From contig JAQGDQ010000001.1 in assembly GCA_030141605.1 (NCBI GenBank), positions 3,100,001 to 3,164,000 on the forward strand: a stretch of 64,000 bases of DNA, read 5' to 3'. Under the pieces are notes generated by a model. It made no database searches. It saw only the letters and a program-made list of their open reading frames with translations, and had not been told where the DNA came from. Positions 29,558 through 62,702 of the stretch are shown piece after piece. The stretch comes from Tubiluchus corallicola. Taxonomy: Eukaryota > Animalia > Priapulida. Positions within the stretch are counted from its first letter, which is position 1, and the number at the start of each line of letters is the position of its first letter. The position numbers were made by a program, and so were the translations under genes.

Positions 29558-32500
29558 ATGACTAAAGAACGAGTGAATGTGATCAATAGTTACTTTGTGA
29601 GGGCAATGTCATTGCATCAGGTATGTTAGAATAATTTGAAAATGAAACAAATAGGGAGTGAAAAACTGCAAAGAAGTGTTTTTATTATGATTGTTTTCTG
29701 CCAAGCTTTTCTTAACATCATAAAGGTAAATATACATGATGCATATAAGTAGCAGTACTAGACTAAGATAACAATATTACTTGCAAGTAATTTTTGTACA
29801 AGCTCATTCATTGGGAATTTTAATCTTAGAATAGGTAATATGACTAAAAGGATATATTTTAACATTTAGTTAAAATGCATCATTTTTGTCTTTTAGGAAA
29901 CAGCACATGATAATGGAATAATCAGAAGTCCATTTCCAGATGTCTCAATTCCTAGTGATGTCACTATTTTTCAGAGTGTATTTAATAATTTGGATATTTA
30001 TGCACATAGCACTGCTGTAGTAGATGCCATAAGCGGGAGATCATACACATATCTTGACTTATCTTTAGCTGTAAAGAAATTTAGCAGTGCTTTGGCGCGG
30101 AACGGATTCAAAAAGAGTGATGTTTTTGCCATTTGCATGCCCAACTGCCCTGAATTTGTCATTTTCTTTTTTGCTGTAATTGGCTTAGGTGGAACAGTCA
30201 CGCCAATAAATCCGGCATACACTACTAGAGAAATCCGTAATCAGTTATGTGATTCTGAAGCAAAATGGATAATATCTGTGCAAGAATTAGAAAAAAAGAT
30301 TTGTAATGCTACATCAAACATCGCTGCAATAAAACACAAAATATTTATGGGAGGAAAATCCTCTGAAAAGAATTTTTCTGCTGAAGAATTACTTCAAGAT
30401 AATGGTTCTTGCTTTCCAAAACATGTACCAATTGATGTCCAAACGGATGTTGCAATTTTACCATATTCTTCTGGTACAACTGGTAAGCCCAAAGGTGTAA
30501 TGCTGACGCACTATTCTATAGTTGCAAATCTTCACCAAACAAAGATACAATGGCCATTTCGACCCGGAGACAAATACATTTGCTTTGTGCCAATGTACCA
30601 TGCATATGGTATTTACTTGACGTTGGGTGCTTTAAGTAATGGTTCCAGTGTGTATTATTTGCCAAAGTTTCACCCAGATACTTTTCTTGGAACTATCCAG
30701 AAATACAAAATTACTCATGCACACCTTGTTCCTCCAGTGATTATTTTCCTTGTCAAGTCTCCATTAGTGGAAAAGTACGATTTATCATCATTTCAGACTG
30801 CGTACAGTGGCTCAGCACCATTAGGTAATTTTTAATATATGATTTACTCAGTTTTGCAATGTAAATGTCATTACAGATAGTTACTTCTTATATTAATTAG
30901 TTTTATTTTGTTGTGCAATTGTCAACATTTTTGTTGATAAAAAATGATTTGAAGATTGAACATTCTCTGTCTGAAAACACAATTGAGCAAATTTGCATTG
31001 TGTAATATCATGTGATTCCTTATAATTTCATATAGTTCTTAAATCAATTTTGTAATTAGCAAACGTATGACAATTTATTGATATCTAAATTTTGTAAATA
31101 ACTGCAAACTGTGTGTATTGAACTTTGCTCTAGATTTTACTATGCACAAATCTATTTCAGTTAAATATTTTAAATTTCTAAAATATTCTTAGTTTGTTAG
31201 ATCTAATATGTTACTGCAAGTTATGTAGTAAGAATTTATAATATTTTTATTGATATTTAGCAAAAGAAATAAGCGATGCTTTTGTGAGAAAGTTTTCTCA
31301 CTTAAAAACCTTTCAACAAGGTTATGGAATGACAGAAACAAGTCCTGTCGTATGTGCTACACCAGAATGGGAGATTTTGCCTTCTACTGTTGGATACGTT
31401 GTGCCAAATTCAGAAGCAAAGGTAATGTCAGTTGTATAAGTTTCAGTGAAGTTTCTAAAGCAATTTTTATGATGCGAAAAACGTATTGTAGATGTTTATA
31501 TGGCCTGTCGTGCTATTACTTTAGTGTTTTCTCTTAGTTGCAAAGTACTGTGATGTTTGCATTGTGTAATATCATGTGATTCCCTATAATTATATAATTC
31601 GTAAATCAATTTTGTAACTGGCAAGCGCAAAGTGGCATTTACCAGACATTCGGAATGCTTAATGCATTTTGTGTTATCCACCTGCGGAATAGCTCCTTAT
31701 AAAAAATCAATAGGAAATAGCTGCAGAAAAAAATAATGTATATTGCAGGTCTGATAAACGGGTGCATTGAAAACAGTGTGAACCGATTTTATCTATTCTG
31801 CATCTGCATAAAGCATAAACATTCCAGATGTCTAGTAAATGAAACTTCATATGGCTGGCATATAGCATATTGCATACGATCAGGTGAACTACTGGCGAAG
31901 CTGTTAGTTTCGTTGATGGACTACCAAGCTTTTTTTGTATGTGGCATAGCGCCATTTAATCATCTATTTGTATGCAACTCGTAATTGCAGTGGGCACCAC
32001 CTAATTTGAGTATGCTAGCAGTTGATTGACGAGCACATTTGTTTTATTCTAGCTCTAACAAACCAAAGTGGTTCTTATTCAGGTTGTTGATTTAAAGACT
32101 GGTGAAGCGCTTGGTCCTAATAAAGAAGGAGAGATATATGTAAGAGGTCCTCATATCATGAAGGGTTATTTGAACAATTCTTCTGCTACTGCTGAAGCTA
32201 TAGATTCTGAAGGATTTCTTCATACTGGGGATACTGGCTATTATGATGAAGAGGGGTATGTCACATATTAAATATCGCCATTTGTACAGTTTAGCAACAA
32301 TATTCCAAGAAGGGAATAAAAAATGACTAAAATGACTTTTAAAAGTTGACGTTGAACTTTTAAAAATCTGCATGCGTTATTAATAGTAGAGCATCTTAAT
32401 TAGTTAAACAGACCTGCGAATTCTCATTACATTAATTAGGTATGTATCACCAATGCACATGCACATTCGAATCAGATTTTAGTACTGATGCATTCCACAA

Positions 32501-33964
32501 CTTCACATGCAAGTTTGCACATTGCTTGGCTTCCTTTGCCATTAGTATGCCTGCTACTCTCAATAATATAGTAGCGCTTATAGTCCTATAATGTATGTTA
32601 TACTAAAGGGTATTACAATTATTGGAAATTAAGCACTTTTGGGTATTACTGAGCTTTTTTCATATACCGACTATAATACATTAGTAGTACACCTGCTACT
32701 CTCAATAATAGAGTAGCGTTTATGAGTCTTATAATGTATATTATACTAAAGGGCATTACAATTATTGAAAATTAAGCATTTTTGGGTGCTACTGAGCTTT
32801 TTTCATATGTACAAAGGAACATATTTATACGTATAGCATAGTGAGCTATAATAACAGCTCAGTAGTACCATAAAATTGTCTTAATTTTAATTTTTTGCCT
32901 TAACTTTTTCGTAATTTGATTTTGATAATTAAAAATGCAAAAATTTCTGCAGCAAAATTTGTCACCTGGACCCCTGCCAGAGCGAGATGATCCCCGGGCT
33001 TTCTACATTTCACACCCGTTTTTACTTCAAATAATTGGGAAGTCTTGTTAAGATAAAGCATATCTATTTAAAGGTCTTTGATGTTTTTCAAAATCAGTGC
33101 ATTTTCTTGCGCTTGTTGACATACACATTGTATGTGACTAGGTCTTAATAGTTCATAAAAAATTAAAAAAATATTCTTATAATATTGTCAAGTCTTTAAA
33201 TTACTTGCACTAAATTGTGTATGTTGTTCTGCATATTATTTTAGTGAAACTTGGTTAGTACAATAAAGTAGCAGTTAACTTGCCCACTAATTTTGGTACT
33301 ACCCAACTAACTGTCTCATAACAAACTCCTAATTTAAGAAAGTTACATGTGATATTGCAGTTCTCCTAAAATGCTGCACAGATTTACTTGTTTTTTATAG
33401 CGAATCACATAAATAAAAATGAATAAAGCCAAAATACTGAAGAAGAATAAGAGAAAAATAAAGCCAAAATACTGCAGACTTACAGTATTGAATACTGAAT
33501 ACTGCAAACTTGCATTCATAATGATTTAAAGGTACTAAAATTATGATTTGCTTATTACTTAGTGGTAAACAATGTGAACTGAAACATTATTTAGCAATAT
33601 CTTATTAATTTGCAGGCATTTCTTCATAGTTGATCGAGTAAAGGAGTTAATCAAATATAATGCATACCAAGTGGCACCAGCAGAGCTTGAAGCATTGCTC
33701 CTTTCTCATCCGTATGTAGCTGATGCCGCTGTTATAGGAATTCCTAATGAACGCACTGGGGAGCTTCCTAAAGCATACATAGTAAAAAAGAACATCGACC
33801 TGACAAGAAGAGAAGTTCAGAAGTTTATAGAGAAAAATACAGCACCATTCAAGTGGCTCAGAGGTGGAGTGGAGTTTGTGTCAGAAATACCGAGATCTGC
33901 TAGCGGGAAAATTTTGCGAAAGTCTTTGCGTGATAGAGCAAGAAATACTAATGCAAAATTATAA
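29558..33964 (+). CDS. Luciferase-like / 4-coumarate-CoA-ligase-like acyl-CoA synthetase, paralog 1 (C-terminal PTS1 AKL)
   Basis: Exons 29558-29620 ([21 protein letters not shown]; acceptor at 29530), 29897-30824, 31261-31421, 32083-32255, 33616-33964; 557 aa from this ATG. Motifs: [40 protein letters not shown]. The true start may be further upstream. Confidence 0.93.
32541..32807. repeat. Imperfect ~140-bp tandem duplication in the last intron of paralog 1
   Basis: attagta..cctgctactctcaataatat..gtagcg...actgagcttttttcatat occurs twice. Confidence 0.85.
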
Positions 33965-36092
33965 AACTTGCTGACTATAAAAATGTTGTGTAACTCATCA
34001 GGTATATAATTTGATGTTTAACATTTCAGTATTTCCTTTTTGGATACAATTATGTACATGTTAATTTATATGTTGTCTTAACAATGCATTTTTGTTACAT
34101 TTTGACGTTATTTTGGCTACTGTTTTTGTAAAGATTCTGCATGTAGCATTACAGTAAAATGCAAAGAAACTTGTTTATCAGAATTGTGTGACAAAATACA
34201 CAAGATAACTACAAGACAAGTTAGATGTGATAAGCAAAAATTTGCATGCTAAAACAAGTGTTACTCGAAATACTGGACTACTGGTCAAGTGTTTCATCGA
34301 ACTCAAGATTGTGGATCAAAAATCCAACTCCGCTAATAGATGTGAAATGTTCTAGTATATTTCTTCGCAGGTTTAGATTTAAGTTTAGGTTTTGTAAAAA
34401 CTTAGATGGGTCATTGCTCTACTTGAATTCATGATGGGAAATCGAAAATCCGAATCCGACTCTGTCAATCGAATCTAAGTTGATACAGAATTCATTCTAG
34501 TGTGTGTCCTATAAAGTTTTATGATGATCCGTTGCTAACTGGTGGAGCTGTAGCCTTTTTTGAATATCATATTGCTGTAAGTTTGAATTCAAAATGGCAG
34601 ATCGAAACAAGGACTATGTCAATCGATTCGGAGTTCATTCTAGTATATTCCTGTAATGTTTCTTGACAATCTACTATAAATTCGCATTTAGAAAAAGGCT
34701 TAAGGTTCCACCAATTCACAGCAAATCGAGACAAAATTATATAGGAATATACTAGAATGAGTTCCACATCAACTGGTGGAATAAGATTTTTGATATGTCA
34801 TTTTGAATTTAACATGATGACAACATAATCATTTTCAACACATCATCATGAAATTTCACAGCTAAAACAAATTCTGCATCAACTGACGGAGTCCTATTTT
34901 CAATCTGCTATTTTAAATTCAAAATGGCAATGATGGTGCCATTTTCAAAAAAATACAAAGGTTTTTTTGAAAACAACAACAACATCCAGGTGAGTAGGGA
35001 TTTGGTTTGATCCATCGACCATGAAGTGATATAGTCTGGAGTGTTTGAAGGCATAATACTGTGGATCAAATTTTTTCGTGCAAATTGTCATATGCATGTT
35101 GCATGAACAGTATTAGAATGTTTCAGTACATAAACTTTGGATTTCGTTGTTTATAAATTCCTCTGGTTAGAATTAGAACAGAAAATTATTGATTATGTCA
35201 ATTTTATGAAGTTGTTCATTTTTTGTTGATTTTTGTATGGTTGTTGGTTTTGTTTGACGTTTGATTGTTAAATATTTAGAAATTAATTATTTAAATTTTA
35301 ATTGTTTGTTGCCTATATAGAATTTTGTGAAAGCATTGCAAAATGTGTTAATAATCTTATTTTTCGTTAATAATGAAATAAAATAATTATTTTAATTTGT
35401 GTTTGTTAGAATTTTAGGAAACGGATTATGTAAAAGAAAAATAATTTGACAGTGTTTGAATAAAGAATGTTAACCACATACAGAAATAACATTGCAATAA
35501 TAATAATAATAACAATAATAGTAAGTTTTCTATTTCTTTTTGAATATTTACAAGCACTTGTCTAAATGCCTAGTAGCAAATTGTTTTTGTGTTTGCAGTC
35601 ATTAGTTTTTGAGTACAAAGATTATATTGTTTTAGTATTACTAATTTGTTGTGTTTTGAGTACTTGACATTAGCACTGCTGATTTATAATGCAAAATGAA
35701 CTTTTGATATAGCAAATACGTTGCTAGATGGCAGTAATGGGGTTGGCAGTAGCTCTATTTTCAATACTATATGTGGGAAAAAGGAGTGAAGCAAAGAATT
35801 ACATTTTTGGTTAAAGCAAGTTTATCTGTTGCTTTGTTTTTAAGTTGTCGTTTTCCAATTTACCATCTGTTTCACCGTTGACATTTGGATAAGGTCCCAT
35901 TCCAGTGCAATCTATCCACATCTCCATTGCCTGAAATGTAAACCTTGTTAGTTTGGATGTACTTACTTTAGCCATTACATTTTTGTAGTTATTGAATACT
36001 TAAGTAAGTCACACCATTGACTGATAACTGTGACCTTCTAACCGGAGGCTCCTGCTAATTATATAATAAGCCTTTTCATGTTTTCGTTGTGC

Positions 36093-36218
36093 GCACACGT
36101 AGTTGCTGTAGGTCAAATGTTAAGTGTACTACAGCAACGCATCTTAACTACAACTGCACACGTAGTTGCTGTAGGTCAAATGTTAAGTGTACTACAGCAA
36201 CGCATCTTAACTACAACT
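36093..36218. repeat. Perfect 63-bp tandem duplication; each unit contains a 10-bp inverted repeat
   Basis: gcacacgtagttgctgtaggtcaaatgttaagtgtactacagcaacgcatcttaactacaact x2; gttgctgtag pairs with ctacagcaac. Confidence 0.92.
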
Positions 36219-37372
36219 GTCACACGACATGTAGGTAAAGCAAAGGGTCTGCCACACCAGTTCAGTAACTTTAGATGTTTTACGTCTACTTTACTTAATT
36301 ATGCATTAGTCTGTGTGTAGAGTGATTTACTAGTAGGATCTTGCTTGGTAACAAGAAAAAATGAACTAGGTAAGGTTCTAGTTAGGTGTTAAAACTGTTA
36401 ATGTTATAGTTGCTTAGGCTGCGAGGCATTGTCAAGTGTACACAAATGCTTTGTCTGGTATACTTAACCTTTGACTTTTCATGATCATCATCAATTACTG
36501 AAACTGTGAAAATGCTTATTAATCAACATGTTTCCTGTTTGTTTTCTATTATGTTGTCTGAAAGTTTTTCATGCACCTGACTAATGCACTCATTCACTTA
36601 TTGAGCTGATCTTATTTTTATGTTTAGCCTAACATATGACCCAGTTTCACTTATTTTTTCGAACATATTTAATGCATATCTGTCTCACATTGACACGAAA
36701 ACTGTTTCATGCATGTTTGTAAACACAGGCATTTCACAACTATTACTATTTTACAAGAGTTACAATTTCACAACTGTCACTATTTCACAAATGTCTCTTC
36801 TTATGCTCTTGTTGTCGTAATTATGTATTTAAACATAGTACATTAGTACATGTTTTTATAAAAGTGCACATAATTTTTGATTAATGGTTTTTAGTGCTGC
36901 AGAGCACAGTATAATAAACTTGGAAAATCACCGTAATCTTCTACTCTCTATACTTATACCTATATTTGAATAGGAACAGCTTTAATTATTGAGATCTATA
37001 CTCATTTCGTTGCATAGGAATGTTTGTATTTAGAAGGTGCAAGTACTTTTGTATATATACATTAAGCCAAACTGCAAATTCGTATAGTATATGTGAGTGT
37101 TCAAGGATTAATAGTGTAGTGACATTAGTTAAACACGTTATGGACATTATACTCTGTCAGTATGATGATTGCCAAGAGTGGAACTGAAATAAATGTATAC
37201 AGATCATTAAGCTGTGATTTCTCACTTAGCTGCAGCTGGAACGTACTTTACTTTTGTACTGATTGGGCCAATGTTAACTTAATAGTGTATAATGTCATTT
37301 GTGAACTTTCAGAACACGAGGACGAAATACACTATGCTTTAATTCAACGTACCATACTTATTGGAAACTACA

Positions 37373-40300
37373 ATGAAGAGCATGTGGAAAATGCCATCTG
37401 CGAATGCTAGTGAAAGGCTTGGCAGGATATCTTCACATTTGTGTGATGACAGGACATCTTATGTTGTAAGTACTATTAATCAATTTTATTTTTCTTGATG
37501 GTGAAAACGAGTCATAGCACACAAAGAATTGTAATGCTTTCCTTTTGACTTGTCATGCAGCTCTGATCTTTTCCTTTCTTAGCTGACTCCAGCTTATAGT
37601 AACAGTCGCTTTATGTACATACTCACACATGTGCGCCCGTGTGTGTGCGCTTGCATGTGTACACACGTGTGTGTAATCAATAGAAACATGTTGTCATGCT
37701 AATCTTAAGATTCACATTTAAAAATGCATACAAATATAGATATTTGTTCCTCACAAACGTTTTAGATGCTTCAGAGGTTTACGTATTTATTTCTCACGTT
37801 AAGGTCTATGTTTAATGCCTTGAGTCTGGACATGAACAGATTGCCAAAATAACAATACACGTTAAGAAGTCTTTTGGAGATTGTCAGTCTTATCCATGTG
37901 TTTACCTCTTTGCTTATTGTAAGAGGTAGCATTAGTAGTTCTCAAAGTAGAAATTGCAAAATTTATGAAAGTTTGTGTGAAATATAATGAAACGTAAAAT
38001 TTGATTGTTTTTTTATAGACAAATCGACTATGCCATGAGGCCAGTTCATGCGAGTTAATTGTGAGAAGCCCATTTCCTGATGTCTTTATTCCTAACAACT
38101 TGCCACTCTATCAGTTGCTCTTGAAAGCTGGCACAAAATACCCAAACAACTTAGCCGTAGTTGACGCTGTAACTGGACAATCATATACGTATCATCAGTT
38201 ACACAAAGTAGTCAGAAAACTTAGCAGTGCTTTAACCAGACAGGGGTTTAGAAAGGGTGACACCCTTGCGTTATGTGTTCGCAACTGTCCGGAGTTCGTT
38301 ATAGTCTTTCTTGGTGTTGTGGGCATTGGTGGAATATTATCACCAATTAATCCTTTATACACATCTTATGAAATACGTAGTCAGCTGCTGGACTCGGGGG
38401 CGAAATGGATCATAACGGAAGTGGAAGTTCAAGAGAAGGTTCGTGACGCAGCAGCAAGACTGTCTGGAATGCGAGGTTTTTTTATTGTGAATGATAAAGC
38501 ATTTCAAAAGAAGTCTTCATTTGGTGGATTGCTAGAGGATGATGGTTCTGCTATTCCTGAGTGCATAAGAATTGACGTTAAGTATGATGTAGCTGTACTA
38601 CCCTACTCATCAGGAACTACAGGACTGCCCAAGGGAGTTATGCTAACCCATTACAATTTGGTAGCCAACATTCACCAAGCTCAAGCTGCATGGCCTTTTC
38701 TGCCAAACAATAAGTACATTTGCTTTCTGCCAGCTTTCCATTCATATGGCATATTTCTCTTACTTGGTGCACTAAGTCATGGATCTGGCATATATATGCT
38801 TCCTGGGTTTCAACCAGAGACTTTCTTGAGTAGCATACAAAAATACAGGATCACGCATGCTCATCTAGTACCTCCTGTGATCACATTCTTAGTTAAATCA
38901 GCAATGGTGGATAATTATGACTTGTCTTCTCTGCAGACTATTTACAGTGCTGCAGCTCCCTTAGGTAGTAAATGATATGACCTTTTCTTATTTGTTTTTC
39001 TGTTAATGTTTGACTTTTCTAAATAGTGCAAATAATTCTAATAGCTTTTTCTTTTTAAAATTTTTCATAGAGTTCTCAAAATATCGAATTTAAGAAGAAA
39101 ATGGCAGTATTTTTCATTAGATATAGAGTCAATATTTTAGACATGTAACCATCAGTGACTATTAATTGCTTTAGTACATATCATTTGCTCACCATTGATC
39201 ACACTGTACTTCACATTGGGCTGTGAGTGACATTAGGTTGACCAAATTGTAGGCCTAATTTGCTGCTGGAACTTCGAAAGCTATCTTTGTTTACCTGCAA
39301 AAGAGCAAGAAAGGAATCATGCAAAAATTACCAAGTTTAGTTGGTATTATTGTTCATTCAGAATCAGCCTTTTATTCAGATATTGTGTTGCAATCAGAAA
39401 AATTACGCAGATAATCAGAAACTAATAAAAGCATTTGCAGACAATGTTTAAATTTTAAGGTAGTATCTTTGCCTATAGTACATATCCTGTAAATGTTATG
39501 AGTGCATTTCTTTAGATACATCAGTTTTATTATACCTTTTTGGTGTCAACAATTGATGGATTGTCACTGTTTGTTTAGCGAAAGACATTGGTATGGCGTT
39601 AATGAGAAAATTTTCGCACCTCAGGGCTTTTCAGCAAGGTTATGGTTTGACAGAAACGAGTCCAGTCGTAACAGCTACACCGGAATGGGAAATCATGCCG
39701 GCTACATCAGGTTATCTTATACCAAATACAGAAGTCAAGGTACATACAGATTTTGGTTTTTATGGAATCTTAACTGAGCAGTAATTAAAAGTATTAAGAG
39801 GTTTTGTTAATCCTTGATAGCCAGAGTAATAATCATGCCCTGTATTTAGTTTCACATTATCTTGAGTATAACGCATGAATTAAAGTAAATTTCCAGTTGC
39901 TTTGTTAGGTTTCAGCTAAGTTGAATCAAACTAGTTTCTTCATTAGTTTCAATCAAGTATTTTTTACTTCAATAGTAGCATTTAGTTTTTGATATACAGC
40001 TGTACTTGCATCATTGTGAATAATATTAAACTGTGGCTACGTAACTTGCTAAGAATTTTTGTATCTCATTACAAGTATTTTGATTAGTTTAGAGTCAGAG
40101 CAGCCATTAATTTAAGGTTCTTTTAATTTGCGAATTCTGGCTGATGAAAGGGAAATGTTTAAGTAGGCACAATCAATGCCTTGCAAACTGGTGCTTAAAA
40201 TGAAGTTTCAAAATTTCATTTGCCATGTTTACAAATTATGTGCCTTGTTGAGGGAAGATACAATGTTTTGCACATGTATCTGAATGCAGCTACTGTATAA

Positions 40301-43300
40301 ACAATCTGTGCTGATTTAATGTTTTCTCACCTTCATGAACTTCATCACCTTTCAGCAGCCCTTTCAACAAGTGCTAGATCCCGCTTGCAGGGTGATAAAC
40401 AGCATAAAAAGTGGCTGGTATTATAAAGAAAATGAACATTTTGACTACATTATAATGTGCATATTAATATCAATTATAACACAGTTTTCTTTATGTTAGG
40501 TTGTACATCTTGAAACTAAGGCAATAGTTGGGCCAAATGTGGAAGGAGAAATCTGTGTGAGAGGCCCTCAAGTGATGAAAGGATATTTGAATAATCTAAA
40601 AGCCACCAGTGAAAGTGTTGATGCAGATGGTTTTTTCCATACAGGTGATACTGGATATTATACTAACGATGGGTAAGAAATTTGGCATAGTGTGTATTGG
40701 TGTTACATAATGTTAGTTTTAGGCCACGGCATGTGCGTAAAAGCAATTGGGAAGGAGGAAGATAGTGGTCAGTTTTTTGCGACTGAGTTTGATTAAAATT
40801 TAGATTAATGAACCAACAGTCTTCTTGCATTTCTGTTCTGTGTACGATGGAGGGGCGGTTGGAGGGGCGGTTATACTTAGATAAGATCTAGTAGTTATAA
40901 TGCACAGAATAAAAGTAAAATTTGATCTATCATTAATTGAAAAATGAATAAACATCATTCGAAAATATGGAGCAGTTAAGCTGAAAACTGTTACATGATT
41001 TGTTATTAAGGGATTTCTGTTTGATTGTTGCACTGTTACAGGTGCTAATCATTTGCTGGCACACAAATGGTGAATGGCATGAATGGCTACACTGCTCACA
41101 GTGGTTAAAACAATGTGCAAGTTGGAGCATTATTCCAGTAACACAACAGTTAAAAATCAATCATTATAGATTTTAATGTTCAGATATAAAACCATCCCAA
41201 AAACAAGCATTTACATTGAACTACTGTTGAAGTGTGTTTTGGTTATTTATTTATTTATTAAATATACCCACAACGATCATTACAGCATAGCACGTAAAAG
41301 AATTTAATATCATATTTATCATTATGTACACAAGATGCCAAGCTGCAAATGATCCGTGGGATACTCAAGAAGTAATTACTTGTTCAGAGCACCCCAAATG
41401 AATGTGGATTGAGTGTAGTAGAAAAGAACAGTAAATGAGTAGAAAGGAAAAGTTAATAGGGAATAAAAAGAAAGAGAAAGATGTGATGGTATCTGTATGA
41501 AGTAATGCGAACTATAGAAATGTAAAAATCGACATAGATAGCAACGCGATGGATCCCGACAGGGACAGCAACATAATTAGCCAAATTTATTTCTTCTATA
41601 TAATTAGAAAAGATTTCACTTTTACAATTTCTTTTGAAGTTGTTTATAGATAAGAATTTTTTATGTATTCGTTGATGTTATTCTAAAGTCTAGGACCAGT
41701 GTTAGTGATGAAGTGCCTTGCCGCATCAGTCCTGCAATACTTAATTAGAAATTCATTAGATCTTGTTTAGTAATGTCTTACATTAGTAGATAATGGGTTT
41801 AAAAAGAAAGTGGGAAGTAGCTTATGTTTGGTTTTGTATATGTAAATAGTGGTATTTAGATTTATTTGATCATTTAGTGCTAGGATAGAATAGTTCTTAA
41901 AAAGATTAAGACCTACATTTTTACGCTTGTTCAAATTAGCTATCAATCTTATGAACTTACATTGTAGAGAGTTTAATTTAAGTATAGATGAAGGGTAGGT
42001 GTGCCCCCAAAATATATTACAGTAGGTTAAGTATGGCAGTACTAGACAATTATAAAGTGTGATAAGATGTTCTTTAGTAAAATAATGTTTCACTCACGTT
42101 TAACGCAATTTTAGAATGAATCATATTTAAGTGTGGTTTCCAATGTAAGCGTTCATTTAAGATAACACCTAAGAACTTCATTTCATTTACTTGTTCTACT
42201 GCATTGCCATTAATTTTTATAATACTGTTCATATTTATATATTGTTACTAGCTCTGAATAAACTGTATTTACTTTTTGTTGAATTTAATGCAAATTTGTT
42301 GATTATAAACCAGGCTGTAATTTTACCGAGTTCACTATTAATAGTGTCAAGTAGCTTGCTGTTTATCCTGAAGATAATACTTGTGTCATCAGCAAATTGG
42401 AAGACCTTTCCATTGTCAGTAATACAGTTTTGTAAGTCATTAATATATATTAAAAGCAACAGAGGTCGAAAAATAGATCCCTAGGGTACGCCATGTGTGA
42501 CTATTGCTTCATTGGGAAGGACATTGTTACATCTGACTACTTGAATTCGGTCCTTGAGGTTATTAGCATTCCATGAGTATGCCACCCTTCTAATGCCATC
42601 CTGGAATAATTTATCTAGCAAAACATCATGATTAACTGTATCAAAGGCCTTAGAGAGGTTGCAAAAATGCCAATGGCAACAGTGTTTTGTTCTAATGAAT
42701 TAATTATGTTGTTTATTATATTAATTAGGGCTAGCCGTGTAGAACTGCCCTTTCTAAAGCCATGCTGATGATTATAAGGTGCATTTTCTATGGTCAAGTA
42801 GTCTAATAATCTTTTATAGACAATTTTTTCTAATATTGTAGCAAAAAAAGCTAATAATAATATAGGTCTATAGTTATTAATATTTAAGGAGTCTTTAACC
42901 TTAAATAAAGGAATAATTACTGATTTGTTTTTAGTTGATAAGGTAATATTCCTGTTGTCAATGAGCGATTTGTTATATGTGTTAAAGGAGCAGCTAAGTT
43001 ATCAATTAAATCAATTATGACTTTGGGTAGAAAATTATCAAAGCCTGCCCCTTTATTATGGTTGAAAGATTTACAAGTAGATTTTAATTCATTTATTGTA
43101 ACAGGACTGAACATAAAAGCAGATTAATAATCACCCTTAAGATAAACTTTAGGGTTAGCACCAGTATTTGGAATTTCTGCAGCTAATTTTTGACTAATCT
43201 GCAAGAAATGCTCGTTGAAAGCACAAGTGACAGGTTAATTGTCAGTTATTATAACTTGCTCTTACCTTTAAGGGCATATGAACCAGATTTTCTATCTGAC

Positions 43301-44851
43301 TGTATAATTTCTTTCATAATAATCCACGTTTTCTTCAAGTTAGTTTTAACATGTTCTAGTTTGTTTTGATAATAATTAGATTTAGAGAATTTTATCATAT
43401 TGTTTAACCTATTACGATACTGTTTGTATTCATGAATAGTGAGATCATAATTAATATCATTCTTGAGAAGTTGAGTATACATCTTATTTTCACATTTAAT
43501 GCTATTTAAGATGGCAGGTGTTATCCATGGCTTTTTAATGGCACCAGAATTTATATTAGTGTTGTTAATTGTAGTTATATTGTTATTGTACATCATTTAA
43601 AATTTATCTAAAAATAAATTATATGCTTCTTGTGGTTCAGATGTAGTATACACATCATTCCAATCAATGTTATCCAAGTCAGAAGCTAACTTGCGTTTGT
43701 TGAATGTTGAATGTTGAACTATTAGGCGTTATACGTGTGGTAAGGTAAATTATAAGGAAATAAGTTTTGCAAGCAGATGTGGCAATACCAAACAACACCA
43801 GCAGCTGGTAGTTTATCTTTTAAAGAAAAATAAGTACATTTTAGATGAATAATTCTGCCGCAGCAGTCGCAGTTCAACCGCCTGCTGGTTGCGTCGAATA
43901 CATTTATCGCATATTGGACAAAAACTGTGTACAGGTACCATCAAAAAGCGCAGGGAAAATCAGGGTTAAAGAGATTACAGAATAGAAAAAGAATAAAAAA
44001 ACAGAATAAAATATCGCTAGAGGAGTGTAAGTTTAAAATATGAAAAAAAGTCATATAATCACATAAAGTCACTACTTTATGTAAGTGCAATACCACTTTT
44101 ATTAGCATTGCACAGAAGCAACTTCTTTGGGTCGTATGACCACATTTTTGAAGAAGTACTAAAACTTGTGAAATATCTGCAGTAGTTACATCAAAATTAT
44201 TAAAAGCGAAATGTCAAAAGTTGTACTTTATTGACATAAAAGGTTACGTTTTAGTGCACTACACTATTTGTATATAGCCACATGTGCAGTTTGTCATGCA
44301 AATTGGCTTGCAGTCTTGTAATTGATTATACCATGGATGCTCCTTTCTTTGTGCTTTGTTCTTAGCTCATTATTTTTAATGTTATTTTTTTGTCCTTAGA
44401 TAATTCTGTCGTAAGACCATATGTAATTAAGCATAAAAAATAGTTACTATTAGATTAGCAGTTTTTATAGACTAACTATTTTCTCTCTCATTCTTTTTTT
44501 AGACATTTCTTTATTGTTGATCGGGTAAAAGAGCTCATCAAATACAATGCATACCAAGTGGCACCAGCTGAACTTGAAGCTTTGCTTCTTTCTCAGCCAG
44601 GCATAGCTGACGCTGCTGTTATTGGAATTCCAAATCAGCGCACAGGAGAATTGCCTAAGGCATACATCGTGAAAAAGAATGAACAGCTGACCGAAGAAGA
44701 AGTTAAGAAAGTTATAGAGGAAAAACTGGCAGCATTTAAATGGCTTAGAGGAGGTGTACAATTCACAACAGAGATCCCAAGATCCATAAGTGGTAAGATC
44801 TTGAGAAAAGTGCTGCGGGACATTGAGAGGAAAAAGTGCCAGGTATTATAA
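37373..44851 (+). CDS. Luciferase-like / 4CL-like acyl-CoA synthetase, paralog 2 (N-terminal PTS2, no PTS1)
   Basis: Exons 37373-37465 ([31 protein letters not shown]; in-frame TAA upstream at 37340), 38019-38964, 39579-39739, 40500-40672, 44503-44851; 573 aa. Motifs: [31 protein letters not shown]; ends KKCQVL*. Confidence 0.93.
41243..43720 (-). mobile_element. 5'-truncated CR1/L2-clade LINE (RT and C-terminal region), antisense in the last intron of paralog 2
   Basis: Minus-strand fragments [74 protein letters not shown]; (TAAA)n tail at 41243-41260; multiple stops and frameshifts. Confidence 0.9.
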
Positions 44852-45967
44852 TAATTACTTATAACTGCTACAGTGTTACAACTAGTGGGCAAATTGTGTA
44901 AAAAGTTGAGACTTCTGCAACGTAGAAAGGAAATGTGGAGGACAAAGACCAAGAAATAACAATATAATTGCTCATGACTGTTATAGTTTGTCATCTCTAG
45001 TCCTGTAGCTGACCAATAAACCAAATTTGTTAGTGTGTTTTCAATAATAAGTTGGCTACAGACTACTGTGTGTTAAAAAAGTTTTGCACTACAGCTGAAA
45101 AAGTGACAAGCATTACAGATCTGTTCAAACCTTTTCTTTACTGCCATAGTTTTTTGCTTAGTTGGAGGAGCTCAGTGATATGGTGAGATGCTACTAACTA
45201 TATACTGAAGACTTAGTGACTACTGTGCACAGTTTCCTTTGCATGGCTGCAGCTGTGCCAGAAATGTTAGAAAAAGATAGCTGCAGCTCGGCATGGTCAT
45301 GGCATGCCTGGGAGTGTTAAGACGCATGTTAAATGATGCTGTTTAGTGCTCCAAAAGGAAACAAGACATTATGTTTGTGCATCTATCAGGGTGTCCATAA
45401 ATGTGTTTAATTCAGTTGACCAAAAATTGGCTACAAACATCTGCTACTGTTGTAATAAGCACTATGTAACAATCATTACAACTTATTAATTGTGTTATCA
45501 ATAATTACCATTTCTTGTCCTGTATTAATTATTTTTTACAATTTTGCACACTGCAATTTAATATCTACCATGCACTTTTGACAGAATTCATTTATTATAT
45601 CGTTGGCTGATGCACTGTTAGAATCTTTCTTGTTAATGGTAGTACTTTTAAGTCTAACGTTGAGTCTGACAGAGGTGCTTTAGAAATCCTGCCGTATATG
45701 CAGATTTTACATAACAGCTTATCTCTCTTTTAATAGCTGAGTAAGTATTACTCTTTATTTTGTCACTCCCTCGCAAAAGGTTGTATTGTGTTATACCCCT
45801 ATAATATACCATGCTATTTTAATAGACTTATCCTGTTTGCAGCTAAAAATTAAAAGCTGATTTACTAAGGCTGAACCATAGGGTTAAGCTCAAACAAAGT
45901 TTTGCACTTTTGATTGAGGGCTGCACACTTTAAATGTGCATTTGTTTTAGTTTTTGTATGTCTTGGT

Positions 45968-46045
45968 ACCTGTGTGGTGTAATGGTTGCATATCTGCCCA
46001 GAAAGAGGAAGGTTTTGTGTTCGAGTCCTAGTTGAGATGCAAATT
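45968..46045 (+). mobile_element. tRNA-derived SINE-like relic
   Basis: A-box-like TGGTGTAATGG and B-box-like GTTCGAGTCC at tRNA spacing, followed by a T-run; no intact cloverleaf. Confidence 0.45.
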
Positions 46046-47109
46046 TTTTTGGATTTAATTTATTGACAGTTGTGCTTTCACATGTTTATCAGGTTGTGGG
46101 CGGAGCTTCAGCATGGAAAATTAACAAATGGATTGATTACCTCATACCCATGGAGCTTAAACTGAGAATTAAAATTGCCATGTTAGGCTAAATACCAGAT
46201 ATAGACAGTGCTGTAGCATGCATTTTTATTGTCCATGTGCATTATTGACGTTGATGTTGGCCAAAACGTATATTCTTTACAATCACTAGTACCAATATAC
46301 TTTTACACACTCAGTATCATTCTATTTTCGAAAATATATGCTACATTTGCGTCTGACATCAACTTGACGGTCTTGGTTCTCACCTTGTATACCATCACTG
46401 TGTACTACTACATCGGCATATTCATTGGTGCCATGTACCACGAGGTGGTACACGGCGAGCGACACATGGTGCTGTGGGACACAGCGAGGCAGTGCACATT
46501 ACAGTCGAGCAAGCCCAAACGCTCCAAATAGTGTAATTATGACAATTTTTTTATCGTCTTTTGTAGCAATTTTGGTTTCTTTAAAGCATGACTATTGTGA
46601 AGCCCTCAATCTCTCCTTGAAAGGTTTAAATTCGATATTATATTGAATCAGGTGAGCGAATTGGGTAAACAATTTATTTTCCAATAATCTGTTATTATAA
46701 TGTGATTGCAAGTCGTGGCGAATTTCTGTTTCGCAAAAATCGAGTTTAAAGGATTGCGCAAAACGTAAAGACGGCATTTGCGATTACCCGCATTGCCAGT
46801 TACAAACACTCGTGATTACGGTGATTTCAATGCTCATTATTTTCTACTTTTTTCTACAACTCGTAATTGTGGTTATTAGTTACCGCATCGGTAATTACCT
46901 TGGGTTAATACTTTTTTTAAAAACGTTTGCTCAGATATTGTGCTTTTTGGTAATTACTGGAAAAATAGTACCGGAAAGGGGATTCAGGCGGTTCACACCG
47001 GCCATACCATCAGAAAGTTAGTAGACTAATAGTAATACTGAGTAAAAGGAGCAGAAAGTAAAGGTCCTAATAGTAAACCATAAGAAGCATACATTCCGCG
47101 CTGCCCTAC

Positions 47110-49880: not shown

Positions 49881-49904
49881 ATGGTCAGTTGCTTCAAGAT
49901 TCAG
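49881..49904 (+). CDS. Candidate initiator micro-exon of paralog 3 (MVSCFKIQ)
   Basis: tacag|ATCAATGGTCAGTTGCTTCAAGATTCAG|gtacta. The ATG at 49881 ends in phase 0 and joins in frame to the acceptor at 51181 or at 51966. Confidence 0.4.
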
Positions 49905-51180: not shown

Positions 51181-54100
51181 CTTTGTAACTTCAGGTTGTC
51201 GAGTCGTATTGACTGGGTTAGAGAGACAGTTAAAACAGGTACATCTTTATCAGCAGCTGAGAGATTGAAAGGGCTAAAGGGACACCTATCTTGCCATTCT
51301 TTGGTATGATGCCTGATCATTACTGACTTATAATCTTAAGATTCTATAATCTTAATATTAAGATTATTATTAATGATGGTACAAATCTGCAGTTTATTGT
51401 ATCTAAAGACCATATGTGAAAAATAGGTTAAAGTGTTACCAGTAGGGGAACTGCAGGCTCAACATTAAAATTAATTCAATTAGTAGTTAGAACTGCTCTA
51501 GTATGAGTGATCTAACTTTGGAAATGCTGAACTGGCGGACCAGCTACAAGTGATTAACTTTGGATTGTTACAATTGGAACTGATTAGTCTAATGGCTTTG
51601 ACATCTGCTTTGTCAGCAGATAGTCCCTTTTCAAATGCAGACTATGTTCGAGCTTTTTTACATTTCTTGATTTTCAAGTTCAATTTTCTAAATTCAGTTA
51701 ATTGTTTCTTTGTACCATTGCATCTGACTGTGTAGCTCATTAAACAGTATTACGAAAATGAAGAAACATTTATGTTAATCAATTTTAATTTGGGATAACA
51801 GTATTAACTCTTAATTCATATCTTTTATAAAGTGTTAATAAATTATAATTATTTGCCTTACTGCCAAAAAGCAAAATCGTGATGCCGATTTTGAGAAAAG
51901 GATGATTCACTAATGTATAGTACATACGTAGGGTGCATGGACATTAAAATAATTTTGTTTTTCAGCAAACAGTTGGTTGTAGCAGCTCTAGTCAGTTCTT
52001 CGTTCGCTGCCCATTTCCAGAAGTTTCCTTGCCTGATAATGTAACTGTATCTCAGTTCTGCTTACACGAATGTGACAAACATCCTGATCGCGTTGCCTTA
52101 ATTGATGCAAATACAGGTTTGATGTACACTTATGGGAAGTTAAAAATTTTAGTGAGAAATTTTGGCTACTCACTGGTGCAGCTGGGTTTTAGAAAAGGTG
52201 ACGTATTTGCGATATGTTCTCCGAACTCTCCAGAATACATTATCGTTTTCTTGGCAGCTGTTCAACTTGGAGGTATTATAACAACTACTAATCCAGAAAA
52301 CACTGATCATGAGCTGTATGGCCAGTTTGTAGATTCGGGCGCAAAGTGGGTGTACACAACGTCTTTGATACAAGAAAAGGTTGGTAGTGCAGCTATAAGG
52401 ACTGGTCAAATACGGAAGATTATAGTTTTGGGAAATGCACATTTTAAGGACACTGTAACATTTGATGACTTGCTTCAAAGCGATGCACCAGCATTTCTAA
52501 ATCAATGTAAAATTAATGTAAAAGCTGACTTGGCAATATTGCCGTATTCTTCGGGAACTACAGGAAAGCCGAAGGGAGTTCAGTTGACACACTACAATGT
52601 TGTAGCGAACAATCTCCAGGCTCAACTGCAATGGCCATTCAGACAAGAAAACAAGTATCTTTTTCTTGTGCCAATGTTTCACATTTATGGCACTTTTCTT
52701 ATACTTGGAATTCTGCATAGTGGTGCTGCTTGTGTCATCTTGCCCAAGTTTCACCCACCTGATTTCTTGAACACCATCCAGAAGTACAAGATAACTCATG
52801 TTCATCTTGTTCCACCAATCATTAATTTTTTGGTGAAATCTAGCATGCCAAATACCTATGACTTGTCATCATTACAAACTATTTATTGCGGTGCAGCACC
52901 TTTAGGTAAGATTTTCACATCTTTTCCGAAGATCTATTTTTTTAGTAAAGTATGTCTCAGAAGTTGGTTTACATTTTGATGCTGCTTACGGTTACAAGAG
53001 TTAATGCATCAACCAAAATATAGGTGTTTAAAATAAGGTCAAAATTTTTAGCCAGATATTCATTAAGAAATAATGGAAACATTGGCATATGTTGTCATCG
53101 TTAAAATGAACTGTTGTTATATGGGGAGTTGTTTTAACTCTCTCCATCACTTTCAATATTGAATGATAAATTCAGAAACCAAAGTTGCCGTAAGAGGTTG
53201 TTAAAAATAAGAGCTTGACTGCTTTTAGATATTCTTGAAACTATATGTACGTGTGGCTTTGTGGCTGTTTTTTAACCTCTAACATTAAGGTTTTGACAGT
53301 TTAACATCTCATGAGTCTTTTATTAAAAGAAAAGTCATGGCTGTTGTTGGCAAGTTGACTTATTTTAACATCTGAGAAAAATGTTATAAAGTTTAAGCAA
53401 TAAAATTCCCATAAGCGCCTCTTGTAATTAGTGGCAGCAATTTGAAGTAGTGATCATTTCACGCTATTCATTGGGTGCACTCATTATGAATGAAAAATGA
53501 CATCGTTCGGTTACTGTGCAATATCAACCCTTCAGTGCTTCATAGTGTTTAAGCGAACTTTTGCAAATGCAGGCACTGTTATTAACTATAAACTATCCAA
53601 AATATTAAAGGAGAGATTATAAATACTGTTTTTTTATTAATCTGGTTGCCCACTGTGTAAGGAAAGCAATTACTGATGACAGAACAGTAATACGAAAATC
53701 TGGCTAGTTAACTCCCAGAGAGCAACAGAATAATTAGTTTAATAAGCTAAAACTCAACTTTATAAGCTAGGTAACCCACCTGACATCAGTACGTAGGTGC
53801 AAAATTGCACGCTTGTCTAAAAGTCAACATATATCTGTATGTCCAGTACAATACTTGCGATTTTTAAGATATAATCCTGTGAATTAAAACTGTGGAATAA
53901 GGTAACATAACAAGTATTAGCAATGTAAGTTGATGCTAATTGAGCGGATGACTAATTTTTACAAAAACATAATTAAACACAAAGATTTAATCAGCTAGTG
54001 AGTGAACTCCAGAAATTTTGCTATGCGTGCCTTCGTGCTGTCTGCTAGCTTATGTAATTTTTTTCAAATGTGCCCGCAGTGAGGCTCGCTTAGTGGGAAA

Positions 54101-55991
54101 TAAGAATTTAAATTTCTCTTGCATTTTAACAAGGTGTTTTATGCACGCATATTGTGTAATAATTTTAATATTTTTAATTGCTTATTAAGATACAATGAAT
54201 GTCGTTTGAGATTAGTTTTCCTTTTAAATTCGAGTTTGTGGAATATGAATTTTAGCTTTAATTTATTGTTGCTTCATTGGATAAATCTTTCTTACAAAAT
54301 TATTATCACTGCTGACTTAACCACTGACCTGAACTGCAAGTGCTTAAACCAAAGTTTTACGGCAGGTTTATCCATCTAACTGACACTTTTTCTCGTTTCT
54401 TATTAGCAAAAGAAGTAGGAGATGAGCTGTTAAAAAAATTTCCAACTTTGAAGACTTTCCAGCAAGCTTGGGGTATGACTGAGACAAGTCCTATTGGCAC
54501 GGCTATGCCGGAAAACGAGGCATTTTCTGGCTCAGTTGGCTACCCTGTGTTAAATACAGAAATGAAGGTACTTATTTAAACGCAGTTACAAATCCTATAA
54601 GAATTTTTGTTCTAACGCTTCTGCCCTGTTTCGTAATTACGTTAGTGTTGATTGTGAATTGCCAAATGTTTTTTAAGTATTGTTAATGTTGATTTAGGTT
54701 GTTGACTTTGAAACGGGTGTATCGCTTGGTCCGAACAAAGAGGGTGAACTGTGGCTTCGAGGACCTCAAGTGATGAAGGGCTACCTCAACAACCAGACCG
54801 CAACTAACGAATGCATTATGGCCGATGGATTTCTGCGAACTGGAGATACTGGATATTACACTGAGGATGGGTAAGTATTTGTTCAACACATTTCAAAGCT
54901 CATATAAATCTTAAGTGGTGACTTATGACTGATTATTTTCTTTTAACTTTTGAACAGATTGTTCAAAATGGAGTTTGTAAACTAACATAGATGTAGCAAA
55001 AGCAGCAATAATAGTATGTTAATTTTAAACCACTTAAGAAAGTAAAAGGGTTTTCCTTTATTTTTGGTTCCATTTCAACATGGCTTTAGTTGCAAAAATG
55101 ATCATCTAAATGTGGATACAAAAATTTTGAAAACTGTTTAGTAGGAATTGCTCAATGAGAATCGAATTTTCTGTAGCTTTTTTCTTTGAAGAAACCATGG
55201 ATAGGGTTAATGATGGTACAAACCCCACAATTAATGAAAGAAAGATAGGAAATGTGAAAAGTTGTAATACAACCAAGATTTGAACCAATACCTGCAATAT
55301 TGAAAATGCTGAATTTGGGTGGCCATCTATAAGGCTGTACTTTGGACTGCCTTGATCACTGAGAATTCAGTTGCCTAGTGGTCTAAGGCATCTGACTTTT
55401 AAACAGGGTCCCTGCCACCTGGTTCGAAGTCAAACTGTTTTCTCAACTTTTTCAAATTTTCACTCATTCAAGCTTCTATTAAAATTTAATTGTTGCTTTT
55501 GTACCATCACCATTAATAATAATAATAATGATAATCATGAACAATCTTATTATTATAATAATTAATGGGTAGGATTAAATTGTGGAGAGGTAAGACGAGT
55601 TATGAAAAAACTGTAGGAAGGTAAATGGCAATTGCTTGTTTTCATTTATAGGCATTTCTTTATCATTGATCGAGTAAAAGAGCTCATTAAGTACAATGCA
55701 TATCAAGTAGCACCAGCTGAGTTGGAAGCGCTGTTGCTGACGCATCCTGGTGTAGAAGACGTTGCTGTAATTGGAATTCCAAATGAATGGTCAGGAGAAG
55801 TACCAAAAGCCTTTGTTGTGAGGAAGCATGACAATGTGACAAAGAGAGAGTTGATCAAGTATGCTGAGCAGAGACTTGCACGTTATAAATGGATCAGGGG
55901 CGGTATTGAATTTGTACCAGAAATTCCTAAATCACCAAGTGGAAAAATCTTAAGAAAAGTTTTACGGATGAAAGAAAAAAGTAAACTTTAA
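51181..55991 (+). CDS. Luciferase-like / 4CL-like acyl-CoA synthetase, paralog 3 (PTS2 and PTS1 SKL); start-codon exon probably further upstream
   Basis: Exons 51181 (or 51195)-51303 (...AAERLKGLKGHLSCHSL), 51966-52905, 54407-54567, 54698-54870, 55652-55991. Motifs: [31 protein letters not shown]; ends KSKL*. The PTS2 exon has no in-frame ATG. Confidence 0.92.
55366..55440 (+). mobile_element. tRNA-derived SINE-like / pseudo-tRNA relic in the last intron of paralog 3
   Basis: TTGCCTAGTGGTCTAAGGC (A-box/D-arm-like) and GGTTCGAA (B-box); stems degenerate. Confidence 0.45.
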
Positions 55992-59437: not shown

Positions 59438-62400
59438 ATGGCAAACAGAAATTACTTATCATTACCAAGCAAGCCAGTTGAGGAACAACTGCAAAGAACA
59501 TTTGGACACACGGTCAAACCAGCAGCTCTGGTATGTTAAATTTGCTAGTTGATTATGATATCAATTGCATTACTATAGGTGTTCATATGCTTTTACTTTG
59601 AAATGTTTGGATGTTTTGACATGTTAGCAGCATTGCAGCAGCCACACTTTGTTTAAAAATTTCAATGCCATGGCAGCACATCCAGACATTACAAAATAAG
59701 AATTATGAGAATGGTCATCTTTTTGAACTGTCGGTTCAATGATGGCCAAACACATGACTTGTTGATTATATCTATGATACTGTTTGAAAGTTCTGTTGAA
59801 GCTAATAAAAACATGCAGTGTTACTTCTCCAGATAATTTACAAAGACTTTTAATTTCAAATCATCTAACAAAAGTTATTATTTGGAAAAAACTTAATATT
59901 TCATTTTTGATCACTACAGATGCTATAGGCTGTATGATTTTCGGAAAAATGATAAATATTTTTAGATAAAGAAAATTTATTAAACGTTATTATTAGAATA
60001 TTTTTTTCAGAAAATTGCATCGTGTAGTGCACAAGGTAACATCATCAGAAGTCCATTTCCCGATGTTGATATACCAGATGTTTCAGTTTATCAGCTTTTT
60101 CTGAACAGTTGTTTTGCATACCCACAAAATTTAGCAGTCGTTGATGCTGAAAATGGCCAAGCATATACCTATGAACGATTACTGAGATGCGTAAAAAAAT
60201 TTGGCAGTGCTCTTGTACGGAGAGGATTTAGGAAAGGTGACATATTGGCAATATGTGTTCCCAACTGCCCAGAGTACGTAATACCATTCTTTGCTACAGT
60301 GGCTATTGGCGGAATAGTAACAACAATAAATCCTGTTTATACTGCAAATGAAATATATCATCAATTGCAAGATTCTCAGCCAAAATGGATAGTGACAGCA
60401 CCTGAAGTACTAGAACGTGTCTCTCAAGCTGTTGATATGAAAATGGGAAATGAAGTAGTCATTGTTATTGGGGAAGAAGTGACTAAAAAGCATTTGTTGT
60501 TTTACAACTTATTAAAAGATGATGGAAACGCCTTCCCAGAATGTGTTCCAATAAATGTGCAAAACGATGTAGCCATTTTGCCATATTCGTCAGGTACCAC
60601 AGGGAAGCCAAAAGGAGTAATGTTAACACATTACAATTTAGTAGCCAGTGTGCATCAGACAAGAATGTGTTGGCCTGTTGCACAAGAAAACAGATATATT
60701 TGTTTTCTACCTATGTTCCATTTATATGGAATCTTTTTAACTCTGCTTGCGCTAAGTCATGGAGCATGTATCTATTATCTTTCAAAGTTTGAACCAAGGT
60801 TATTTCTTCAAACACTGGAAAAGTACAAGATAACACATGCACACCTTGTACCACCCGTTGTTAACTTCTTGGTCAAGTCGCCACTTACAATGAAATATGA
60901 TTTGTCAAATCTTGAGAAAGCTTACTGTGGAGCTGCTCCATTAGGTAGGTGTGTAGTGCAAGTTGCTTATTTTTCTTCAATAGTCCGATCATCATCACAG
61001 TAACTTTTAACAAAGAAGTCAGCGCTAGTAAAAATGGTTATAAGAACATCCGCATTGATTTGGCAATTGTGGTAGGCCTGATCTAATATGGGGATGATTT
61101 ACACTTTTTGTACTTTCAGGAAAAGAAACTAGTGAAGAACTTCTACGAAAAATTTCGTCATTGCAATTGTTGCAGCAAGGTTTTGGCATGACAGAAACAA
61201 GCCCTGCTATCACCGTCTGTCCAGAAACAGAAATGATTCCATCTACTGTAGGATATGTTGTGCCAAACTCTGAAGTGAAGGTAACTAGTAAAAGTGGTTT
61301 TTAACTCTTATTCAGTTAGGGAACATTTATATTTCCGAAATTACGTTAAATTTTTATAACATTTCTGATTATTGTTGTAGGTTGTTGACTTACATAGCGG
61401 AAAAGTTCTTGGCCCAAATGAGGAAGGTGAGATCTGTGTACGAGGTCCCCAAGTGATGAAGGGGTATCTGAATAATCCAAAAGCAACAAATGAAACTATT
61501 TATCCTGATGGTTTTTTGCATACTGGTGATACTGGTTACTACACTGATAAAGGGTCTGTACTAATGGAATTTGATAATTTAGAGTTTAAATACCACAGAC
61601 CCCTAATGTGCAATTTACATCACAGTAACAGCAGTGCACAAGAGTGTGTTGGCCTGTTGTATGAATGTATTGTATTACATTCATGACAAGTAAAATACAC
61701 TACATTAATCCCATATTGCAGCAACACATTTTACCACATTTACGATTATTCATCTATTTTTTGTGTAAGAAATGTCCTAAGTGATATCTTGCTGCTGCAT
61801 ACTTCTTACAGATTACAGTCAGTCAACAAAATTGAACAAATATAGTTAATACAGTGTGATTTTGCAACCTATTACTATTATTATTAGTTACTTAAACTTT
61901 GCTGATAGTGGCTATTATTTAATATTTCCCTAACAGCTTTTTTCATGCCATTATAATAATGATCCACCAACTTTTCTTAAACTTCTGTGGTTCATCAAAC
62001 CAGCAATTTTGTTATTGTTGTCTAGTTATTGGCATCTGAGCTTTTAATTTTATACAGTGTCATAAGAATGTGAATTGAGAGCTTCCAATTTTTTGATACA
62101 GCTGAAAATTGTTTAGTTACAAATTTTGCAGCATGATTTCTGTTGACATCTGTAATCGTTGAGATTTTGTTCATTTAAGCACCAGATTCAGATTTCGGGA
62201 TTAATAATTGCTTGTTGTAATATAGGTTTTTTTTCAGTAAAATATTTTCTCATGAAGTGTTATGGAAGTTAAACGTTGAGAATTGATGGTTTGGGTAAAT
62301 AGGTGCCACACACTTAGTAACCTTTGTTCACTTGCATTGATATATCTTTTCAGACTTTTCTACATTGTTGACAGAGTGAAAGAACTCATAAAGTACAACG

Positions 62401-62702
62401 CGTACCAGGTAGCACCAGCTGAATTGGAAGCATTACTAATATCCCATCCTGGTATAGAAGATGCAGCTGTAATTGGAATTCCTGATATGAGAACTGGTGA
62501 AGTCCCAAAAGCATTTATAGTGAAAAAAGACAAGACCTTAACTGGAGAACAAATTAAGATGTTTGTGAAGCAAAATGTTGCAAATTTCAAACAACTGAGA
62601 GGTGGACTAGAATTTGTGACTGAAATTCCAAAGTCGGGCAGCGGTAAGATTCTCCGAAGGATACTGCGGGAGAGAGAGCAACAAATTCGTAGTAAATACT
62701 GA
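59438..62702 (+). CDS. Luciferase-like / 4CL-like acyl-CoA synthetase, paralog 4 (degenerate PTS2, non-canonical SKY terminus)
   Basis: Exons 59438-59530 (MANRNYLSLPSKPVEEQLQRTFGHTVKPAAL), 60011-60944, 61120-61280, 61381-61553, 62354-62702; 569 aa. Motifs: [31 protein letters not shown]; ends IRSKY*. Confidence 0.93.

Follow-up and report, generated by a model that had tools for sequence, protein, structure and literature searches.

A candidate PTS2-only acyl-CoA ligase in a tandem gene array of the priapulid Tubiluchus corallicola

The established animal cargoes of the second type of peroxisomal targeting signal (PTS2) amount to about three enzymes, and some lineages no longer have the pathway (PMC8919083, PMC12339391). 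A plant precedent for an acyl-CoA synthetase with this signal is LACS7, which carries a PTS2 together with a C-terminal SKL, its tomato orthologue carrying the PTS2 only (PMC9328179). The luciferase-like and 4CL-like enzymes of insects have expanded in tandem, with gain and loss of the type 1 signal (PTS1) (PMC7522259, Data S19-S21), and a similar expansion is found in the DNA described here, a stretch of 64,000 nucleotides from the priapulid Tubiluchus corallicola (GenBank assembly GCA_030141605.1, contig JAQGDQ010000001.1, positions 3,100,001 to 3,164,000 of the forward strand; hereafter the window, to which all coordinates refer). It contains four tandem genes, P1 to P4, and our subject is the second, P2 (37373-44851, + strand), whose predicted product has a PTS2 near the N-terminus and no PTS1. 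We consider it fairly probable that P2 inherited its PTS2 from a doubly tagged ancestor and is imported via PEX7 alone, while its C-terminal tail drifts. As far as the sequence can tell, the finding is real and beyond chance: a predicted PTS2 cargo in a normally PTS1-type family, accompanied by a four-paralog series of signal loss.

The nonapeptide of P2, RLGRISSHL (R15-L23; 37415..37441, + strand), is a full match to the Petriv consensus R-[LVIQ]-x-x-[LVIH]-[LSGA]-x-[HQ]-[LA], in the form given by PMC4585086 and PMC12339391. When the residues of P2 1-45 were shuffled 200,000 times, the chance of a match was 0.0002 for this consensus, 0.00065 with X4 relaxed and 0.0017 for R[LI]x5HL; shuffling the nucleotides of exon 1 (18,972 shuffles free of stops) gave 0.0003-0.0012. 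As six-frame background, the window contains 69,780 9-mers without a stop, of which 8 are relaxed matches; the exon-1 slots of P2 and P3 account for two of these. Among 256 homologues of at least 500 residues, many of them bacterial or unnamed, two (P0003 and P0076) match the consensus within the first 70 residues. The motif lacks Pro and lies outside the fold, with a linker between it and the core: homology to solved 4CL begins at about residue 41, and a conserved core anchor stands at residue 47. PMC4585086 describes the PTS2 as a helix followed by a linker. In the AlphaFold model of P0003, which stands in for P2 in our fold comparisons, a helix at 16-25 covers most of the motif and is followed by an unstructured linker.

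The gene model leaves little room for a product without the motif. Exon 1 (37373..37465, + strand; 31 codons, phase 0, donor GTAAGT) encodes the N-terminal extension with the PTS2. M1, M4 and M7 all precede the motif, the next Met is residue 182, and an in-frame stop abuts exon 2; thus no start in the same frame omits the motif yet keeps the enzyme. The initial annotation had placed RLGRISSHL at residues 15-23 from the first ATG, and the position holds, but that ATG is the first only after a two-codon in-frame upstream open reading frame (ORF), ATG CTT TAA (37334..37342, + strand). Since its stop at 37340 is in frame and AG is absent from 37343-37372, an upstream coding extension via an acceptor-like AG before 37313 is ruled out. 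An unseen alternative first exon is possible.

At its other end, P2 terminates in CQVL after RKK (44837..44848, + strand), followed by two TAA codons; stop readthrough was rejected as an explanation in view of these consecutive stops. QVL fits neither the canonical PTS1 [SAC][KRH][LM] nor the broad pattern [ASCNPHTG][RKHQNSL][LMIVF] quoted in PMC8919083. The last exons of P1, P2 and P4 are 349 nt each (340 nt in P3), so QVL* aligns with AKL* of P1 and SKY* of P4, and on this point our gene models agree with the initial annotation. Its further claim, that the PTS1 was lost by substitution, is borne out as to the loss, but equal length does not prove substitution alone, as over the last 12 sense bases P2 departs from P1 at 8 positions and from P4 at 9; small compensating indels may possibly have acted beside it. 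SKY (62691..62699, + strand) is itself non-canonical and fails the broad pattern of PMC8919083. A contig of run X1 (depth 11.4, 44494-45318) shows six differences from the window, the sole coding-exon one at 44844, changing the tail to CQAL; by inspection, QAL fails both patterns too.

The PTS2 had been treated as a feature of P2, but our comparison shows it to be a family trait: in all of P1-P4, a short exon of phase 0 contains this slot, with a Glu just before it. P3 has RLKGLKGHL (51262..51288, + strand), its core intact and K at X4 outside the Petriv list, together with the PTS1 SKL (55980..55988, + strand) in the gene model. The slot is eroded in P1 (RVNVINSYF, 29570..29596, + strand; Tyr at the His position), which retains the PTS1 AKL (33953..33961, + strand; gene model), and in the slot alignment of P4 (QLQRTFGHT, 59486..59512, + strand). 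Over 15 codons around the slot, P2 and P3 share A-3, E-1, R, L, H and L, all on different codons; X3 is I or L, and the rest differs. Identical key residues on different codons indicate that the PTS2 signature has been conserved at the protein level, in a pair with 54% identity overall and different codons at 160 of 287 identical core residues. The Logan protein P0003, which is free of introns and shares 89.5% identity with P3, reads RLKRLRGHL and likewise ends in SKL. As it is intron-free, it confirms the join of exons 1 and 2 in a relative, as well as the coexistence of PTS2 and PTS1. As regards the conservation check proposed for RLx5HL, the motif is kept in the paralog P3 and its orthologue P0003, which argues for apparent selection on the PTS2. 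No P2 orthologue was found in the homologue searches, the first two of which scored the best approximately 8000 candidates, nor in the full search of 50% representatives, P0003 being the sole close relative.

In a quick-search tree of 71 rows hand-picked from 236 proteins of at least 500 residues, P1-P4 and P0003 form one clade (SH-aLRT 100), in which P3 and P0003 stand apart from P1, P2 and P4 with a support of 80; the clade itself lies in an unresolved fork, and the Atlas returned plant 4CL clusters. By sequence, introns, LINE remnants and the best named hits point to an animal. The ancestor is likely to have had both tags, with reciprocal loss after tandem duplication, as in plant LACS6/LACS7: P1 would have kept PTS1, P2 PTS2 and P3 both, while P4 weakened both. 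With an eroded slot and a non-canonical tail, P4 may have left the peroxisome altogether.

We therefore envisage, as the steps behind the favored interpretation, that tandem duplication allowed the two redundant tags to be lost reciprocally, and that PEX7 with its PEX5 co-receptor would bind the P2 helix at residues 15-23. A TYSND1-type protease might then remove the presequence at a linker Cys, and the enzyme would form CoA thioesters from carboxylic acids in the peroxisomal matrix. The freed tail would have drifted, its CaaX look being incidental. Cys residues are reported at PTS2 cleavage sites of plants and mammals (PMC3830196), and P2 has C24, C36 and C42; linker Cys also occur in P3, in P0003 and in the eroded P4, with none in P1. 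As a clue to a presequence cleavage site, this is suggestive only.

Several observations weigh against this interpretation. The PTS2 pathway is absent in Drosophila and C. elegans (PMC8919083, PMC12339391), and zebrafish Uraha, with a putative PTS2, failed to reach peroxisomes when assayed with a reporter (PMC8919083). P0076 meets the consensus while grouping with bacterial sequences, and we take it as a chance match. Residues 1-40 of the P0003 model have predicted local distance difference test (pLDDT) values under or close to 50, and the helix is correspondingly soft. P3 and P0003 share 24 of 32 residues around the motif, which makes their five kept positions weak evidence. The tree is root-dependent and without a firm root, and the node uniting P1, P2 and P4 is weak. 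Finally, the substrate scores of both tail variants for geranylgeranyltransferase I (GGTase-I), presented below, become a matter of chance under neutral drift.

A search of an open-access library turned up no 4CL/luciferase-like enzyme of an animal with a tested PTS2. To that extent the suggestion that this cargo class is undescribed in animals stands, but software calls of PTS2 exist for 5 of 490 insect luciferase-like/4CL entries in a beetle genome paper (PMC7522259, Data S21; the total is the sum of Data S20 entries). Among these five, IluPACS9 combines a canonical-looking motif with SKL, again by software call (Data S21). Among the cloned luciferases examined in Data S19 of the same paper, none carries a PTS2 call.

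The CaaX-like form of the P2 tail is additional to the initial annotation, and it may be more than a dead PTS1. A possible, though rather unlikely, alternative is that a working CaaX box has replaced the PTS1, so that a geranylgeranyl group on C571 anchors P2 in a membrane, with P2 lying on the inner peroxisomal face once imported through its PTS2, or else being divided between peroxisomes and endomembranes. Put as an evolutionary sequence, which we entertain with equal reserve, import would have been handed to the PTS2 and the PTS1 converted in place to a geranylgeranylation box, giving a lipid-anchored PTS2 cargo in which a V/A polymorphism switches CaaX processing. The tail RKKCQVL has the required form, i.e. 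Cys at -4, aliphatic a2 and Leu as X, and 4 basic residues lie at positions -12 to -5; basic residues are, however, as frequent in the tails of the PTS1 paralogs. In the yeast GGTase-I screen of 8000 motifs in PMC11304957 (File S1), CQVL scores 0.087 at 37 °C, within the group below 0.2 (137 of 8000) that consists mainly of canonical geranylgeranylated motifs. For the variant CQAL the score at 42 °C is 4.2, higher than that of the validated CRPL (3.1) and typical of motifs that are modified without being cleaved. With 0.12, CQKL and CQRL lie close to the unmodified CASQ (0.06; same source), implying that a PTS1-type K or R at -2 and prenylation are mutually exclusive. On the CaaX interpretation, loss of the Lys at -2 would thus have killed the PTS1 and permitted prenylation at once. 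A further parallel to an anchored P2 is that plant LACS6/7 act partly at the lumenal membrane face (PMC4652930).

Other evidence speaks against a functional box. Of the ten CQxL motifs looked up, five behave like substrates; two out of two therefore has a probability of about one in four. The Cys itself is an easy mutation from Arg, since Arg occupies -4 in P4 (CGT) and P0003 and the window is depleted in CpG (observed/expected 0.54). The absence of P2 orthologues from the homologue searches means that conservation of the Cys gains no support from them; in the one other sample, X1, the Cys is kept and a2 is changed, but this sole coding difference in the last exon hits the box and would alter its processing. 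In the farnesyltransferase-centred set of the PMC9231725 supplements, CQAL is negative and CQVL is called by one of four predictors, and human GGTase-I modified the related CQLL only to about 50% (PMC11152559). No prenylated PTS2 cargo was found in the open-access library searched.

Two homologues count in favor of the CaaX interpretation. Among 300 proteins of fewer than 1300 residues, Cys at -4 occurs only in two coral-type two-domain enzymes, P0001 (Acropora millepora) and P0002, both ending in CCVII, which scores 0 at 37 °C (PMC11304957). Each has two full AMP-binding units of 4CL-like type, and they represent clusters of 52 and 19 sequences. They are possibly a conserved prenylated ligase of corals, as judged by their strongly CaaX-like tails, and prenylated members may accordingly exist elsewhere in the family.

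An unlikely further explanation is that the PTS2 of P2 is vestigial or misread. Like many luciferase-like paralogs of insects, P2 would then no longer be targeted to peroxisomes and would reside in the cytosol or in mitochondria. Consistent with this, the slot is eroded in two of the four paralogs, and many animal homologues have long N-terminal extensions without a PTS2 that look by eye like mitochondrial presequences. Most beetle luciferase-like/4CL entries are without a peroxisomal targeting signal (PMC7522259), and the failure of the Uraha signal points the same way. Against it, the motif is perfect exactly in the paralog without PTS1, and it is conserved, on different codons, across 46% core divergence. 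Among the first 35 residues of P2, 6 are basic and 3 acidic; presequences differ from this in having almost no acidic residues (PMC4585086). The hydrophobic moment of the slot (P2 0.62, P4 0.56, P3 0.23) does not separate intact from eroded motifs. PTS2-only import is still the preferred explanation.

It is very improbable that CAG/GTATTA at 44840-44848 is a splice donor leading to a downstream exon with a different C-terminus, which might be a PTS1: scored with a matrix built on the 16 paralog donors, the site reaches 7.1 (leave-one-out 2.6-10.6), a value reached by 1.7% of 4021 GT sites, but no AG in 44893-51200 yields a canonical PTS1 in phase 0, X1 has GC in place of GT at the candidate donor, and the P2 stop is in register with those of P1 and P4, with AATAAA at 45015.

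The P2 product of 574 residues is encoded in an open frame over five exons. Exon 2 (38019..38964, + strand) carries the linker with C36 and C42 and then the AMP-binding domain with its P-loop (PF00501, E 5.6e-65), which is found in exon 2 of all four paralogs. Exons 3 (39579..39739, + strand) and 4 (40500..40672, + strand) contain the QGYGLTE and GFFHTGD motifs and measure 161 and 173 nt, respectively, in P1-P4 alike. Exon 5 (44503..44851, + strand) encodes the C-terminal domain AMP-binding_C (PF13193, E 2.7e-17) with DRVKELIK and SGKILRK, both Pfam domains scoring above the curated cut-offs. The adenylation motifs are all intact (P-loop, GYG-TE, TGD, DR-KELIK and the Lys in SGKILR), and we assume their roles in P2, including that of SGKILR Lys as the catalytic residue. 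By its sequence, P2 is an intact 4CL/luciferase-like acyl-CoA ligase, which would activate carboxylic acids to CoA thioesters. Its top matches by sequence in the Protein Data Bank are plant 4CL (E 1e-55), and Foldseek with the P0003 model as query gave 40-41% identity to 4CL (5bst, TM 0.85, 41%) versus 32-37% to beetle luciferases. Luciferases are therefore not the closest relatives of P2 and P0003. Of the initial description of P2 as a PTS2-only luciferase-family enzyme, the predicted PTS2 and the lack of a PTS1 are upheld, but 4CL is the nearer relative.

The four + strand genes share a five-exon plan with concordant phases and open frames, and their products are 53-61% identical in pairwise comparison. 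As GT-AG gene models they span 29558-33964 (P1), 37373-44851 (P2), 51195-55991 (P3, start exon not found) and 59438-62702 (P4), in a window of 33-34% G+C. The PTS2 exon of P3 (51195-51303) has no ATG, with ATT where P0003 has its starting Met, and an upstream exon or a non-AUG start is needed; an ORF upstream of it (50109-50531) gave no Pfam match. Intron 4 of P2 (3830 nt) contains on the - strand (41770-43940) the decayed remains of a LINE-like element, in which fragments of reverse transcriptase and a piece resembling a PHD finger all score under the Pfam cut-offs, and a high-copy repeat with very high contig depth in run X1 lies upstream of P2, at about 36040-36520. Within 1-27000, a codon-usage scan found no convincing further coding exon, and the tested ORFs at 25922-27472 had no Pfam match.

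Two contigs, one each from runs X1 and X2, resemble these genes. One of run X1 over 44517-44633 has 23 differences in 117 bases and flanks unlike those of P1-P4, and is likely a fifth paralog outside the window. One of run X2 over 44507-44579 connects sequence resembling exon 4 with sequence resembling exon 5 and differs at 13 of 73 bases; it is a spliced transcript, either from a further member of the family or from a different organism. P2 is not represented among the contigs of run X2, which says nothing on its expression.

With P2 and P3, the short list of animal PTS2 cargoes would gain a new enzyme class. In a lineage that has supplied a normally PTS1-type enzyme family with a PTS2 exon, four neighbors with PTS1, PTS2, both or neither also form a natural series for the study of targeting-signal exchange, a subject treated mostly by argument in section 25 of PMC4585086. 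If the P2 tail were prenylated, this would show the in-place conversion of a PTS1 to a CaaX box, and the question would arise whether a lipidated protein can use PEX7 import.

Several known systems lie close to P2. Beetle and other insect luciferase-like and 4CL-like enzymes, such as firefly luciferase and Drosophila CG6178, share its fold and Pfam domains; these enzymes use PTS1, unlike P2, and nothing in P2 hints at light emission. Plant 4CL and peroxisomal 4CL-like enzymes are its best structural matches by sequence and fold, but the peroxisomal coumarate-CoA ligases of Arabidopsis and tomato covered in PMC9328179 all have PTS1. The Rho-type GGTase-I substrates ending in CVLL, CAIL and CIIL agree with CQVL in the Cys at -4, the Val at a2 and the Leu at X, and they fall into its score group (PMC11304957); P2 differs in the Gln at a1, the polymorphic a2 and its nature as a metabolic enzyme with a PTS2. 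The vertebrate PTS2 cargoes ACAA1, PHYH and AGPS place an N-terminal nonapeptide and a linker before the core, as P2 does (PMC8919083, PMC4585086, PMC12339391), although none of them is an adenylate-forming ligase. Plant LACS6 and LACS7 belong to the long-chain subfamily, and the account of them in PMC9328179 mentions no CaaX-like tail; yet they are acyl-CoA synthetases with a PTS2, and they occur with PTS2 and SKL in one paralog and PTS2 only in the other form, much like P3 and P2.

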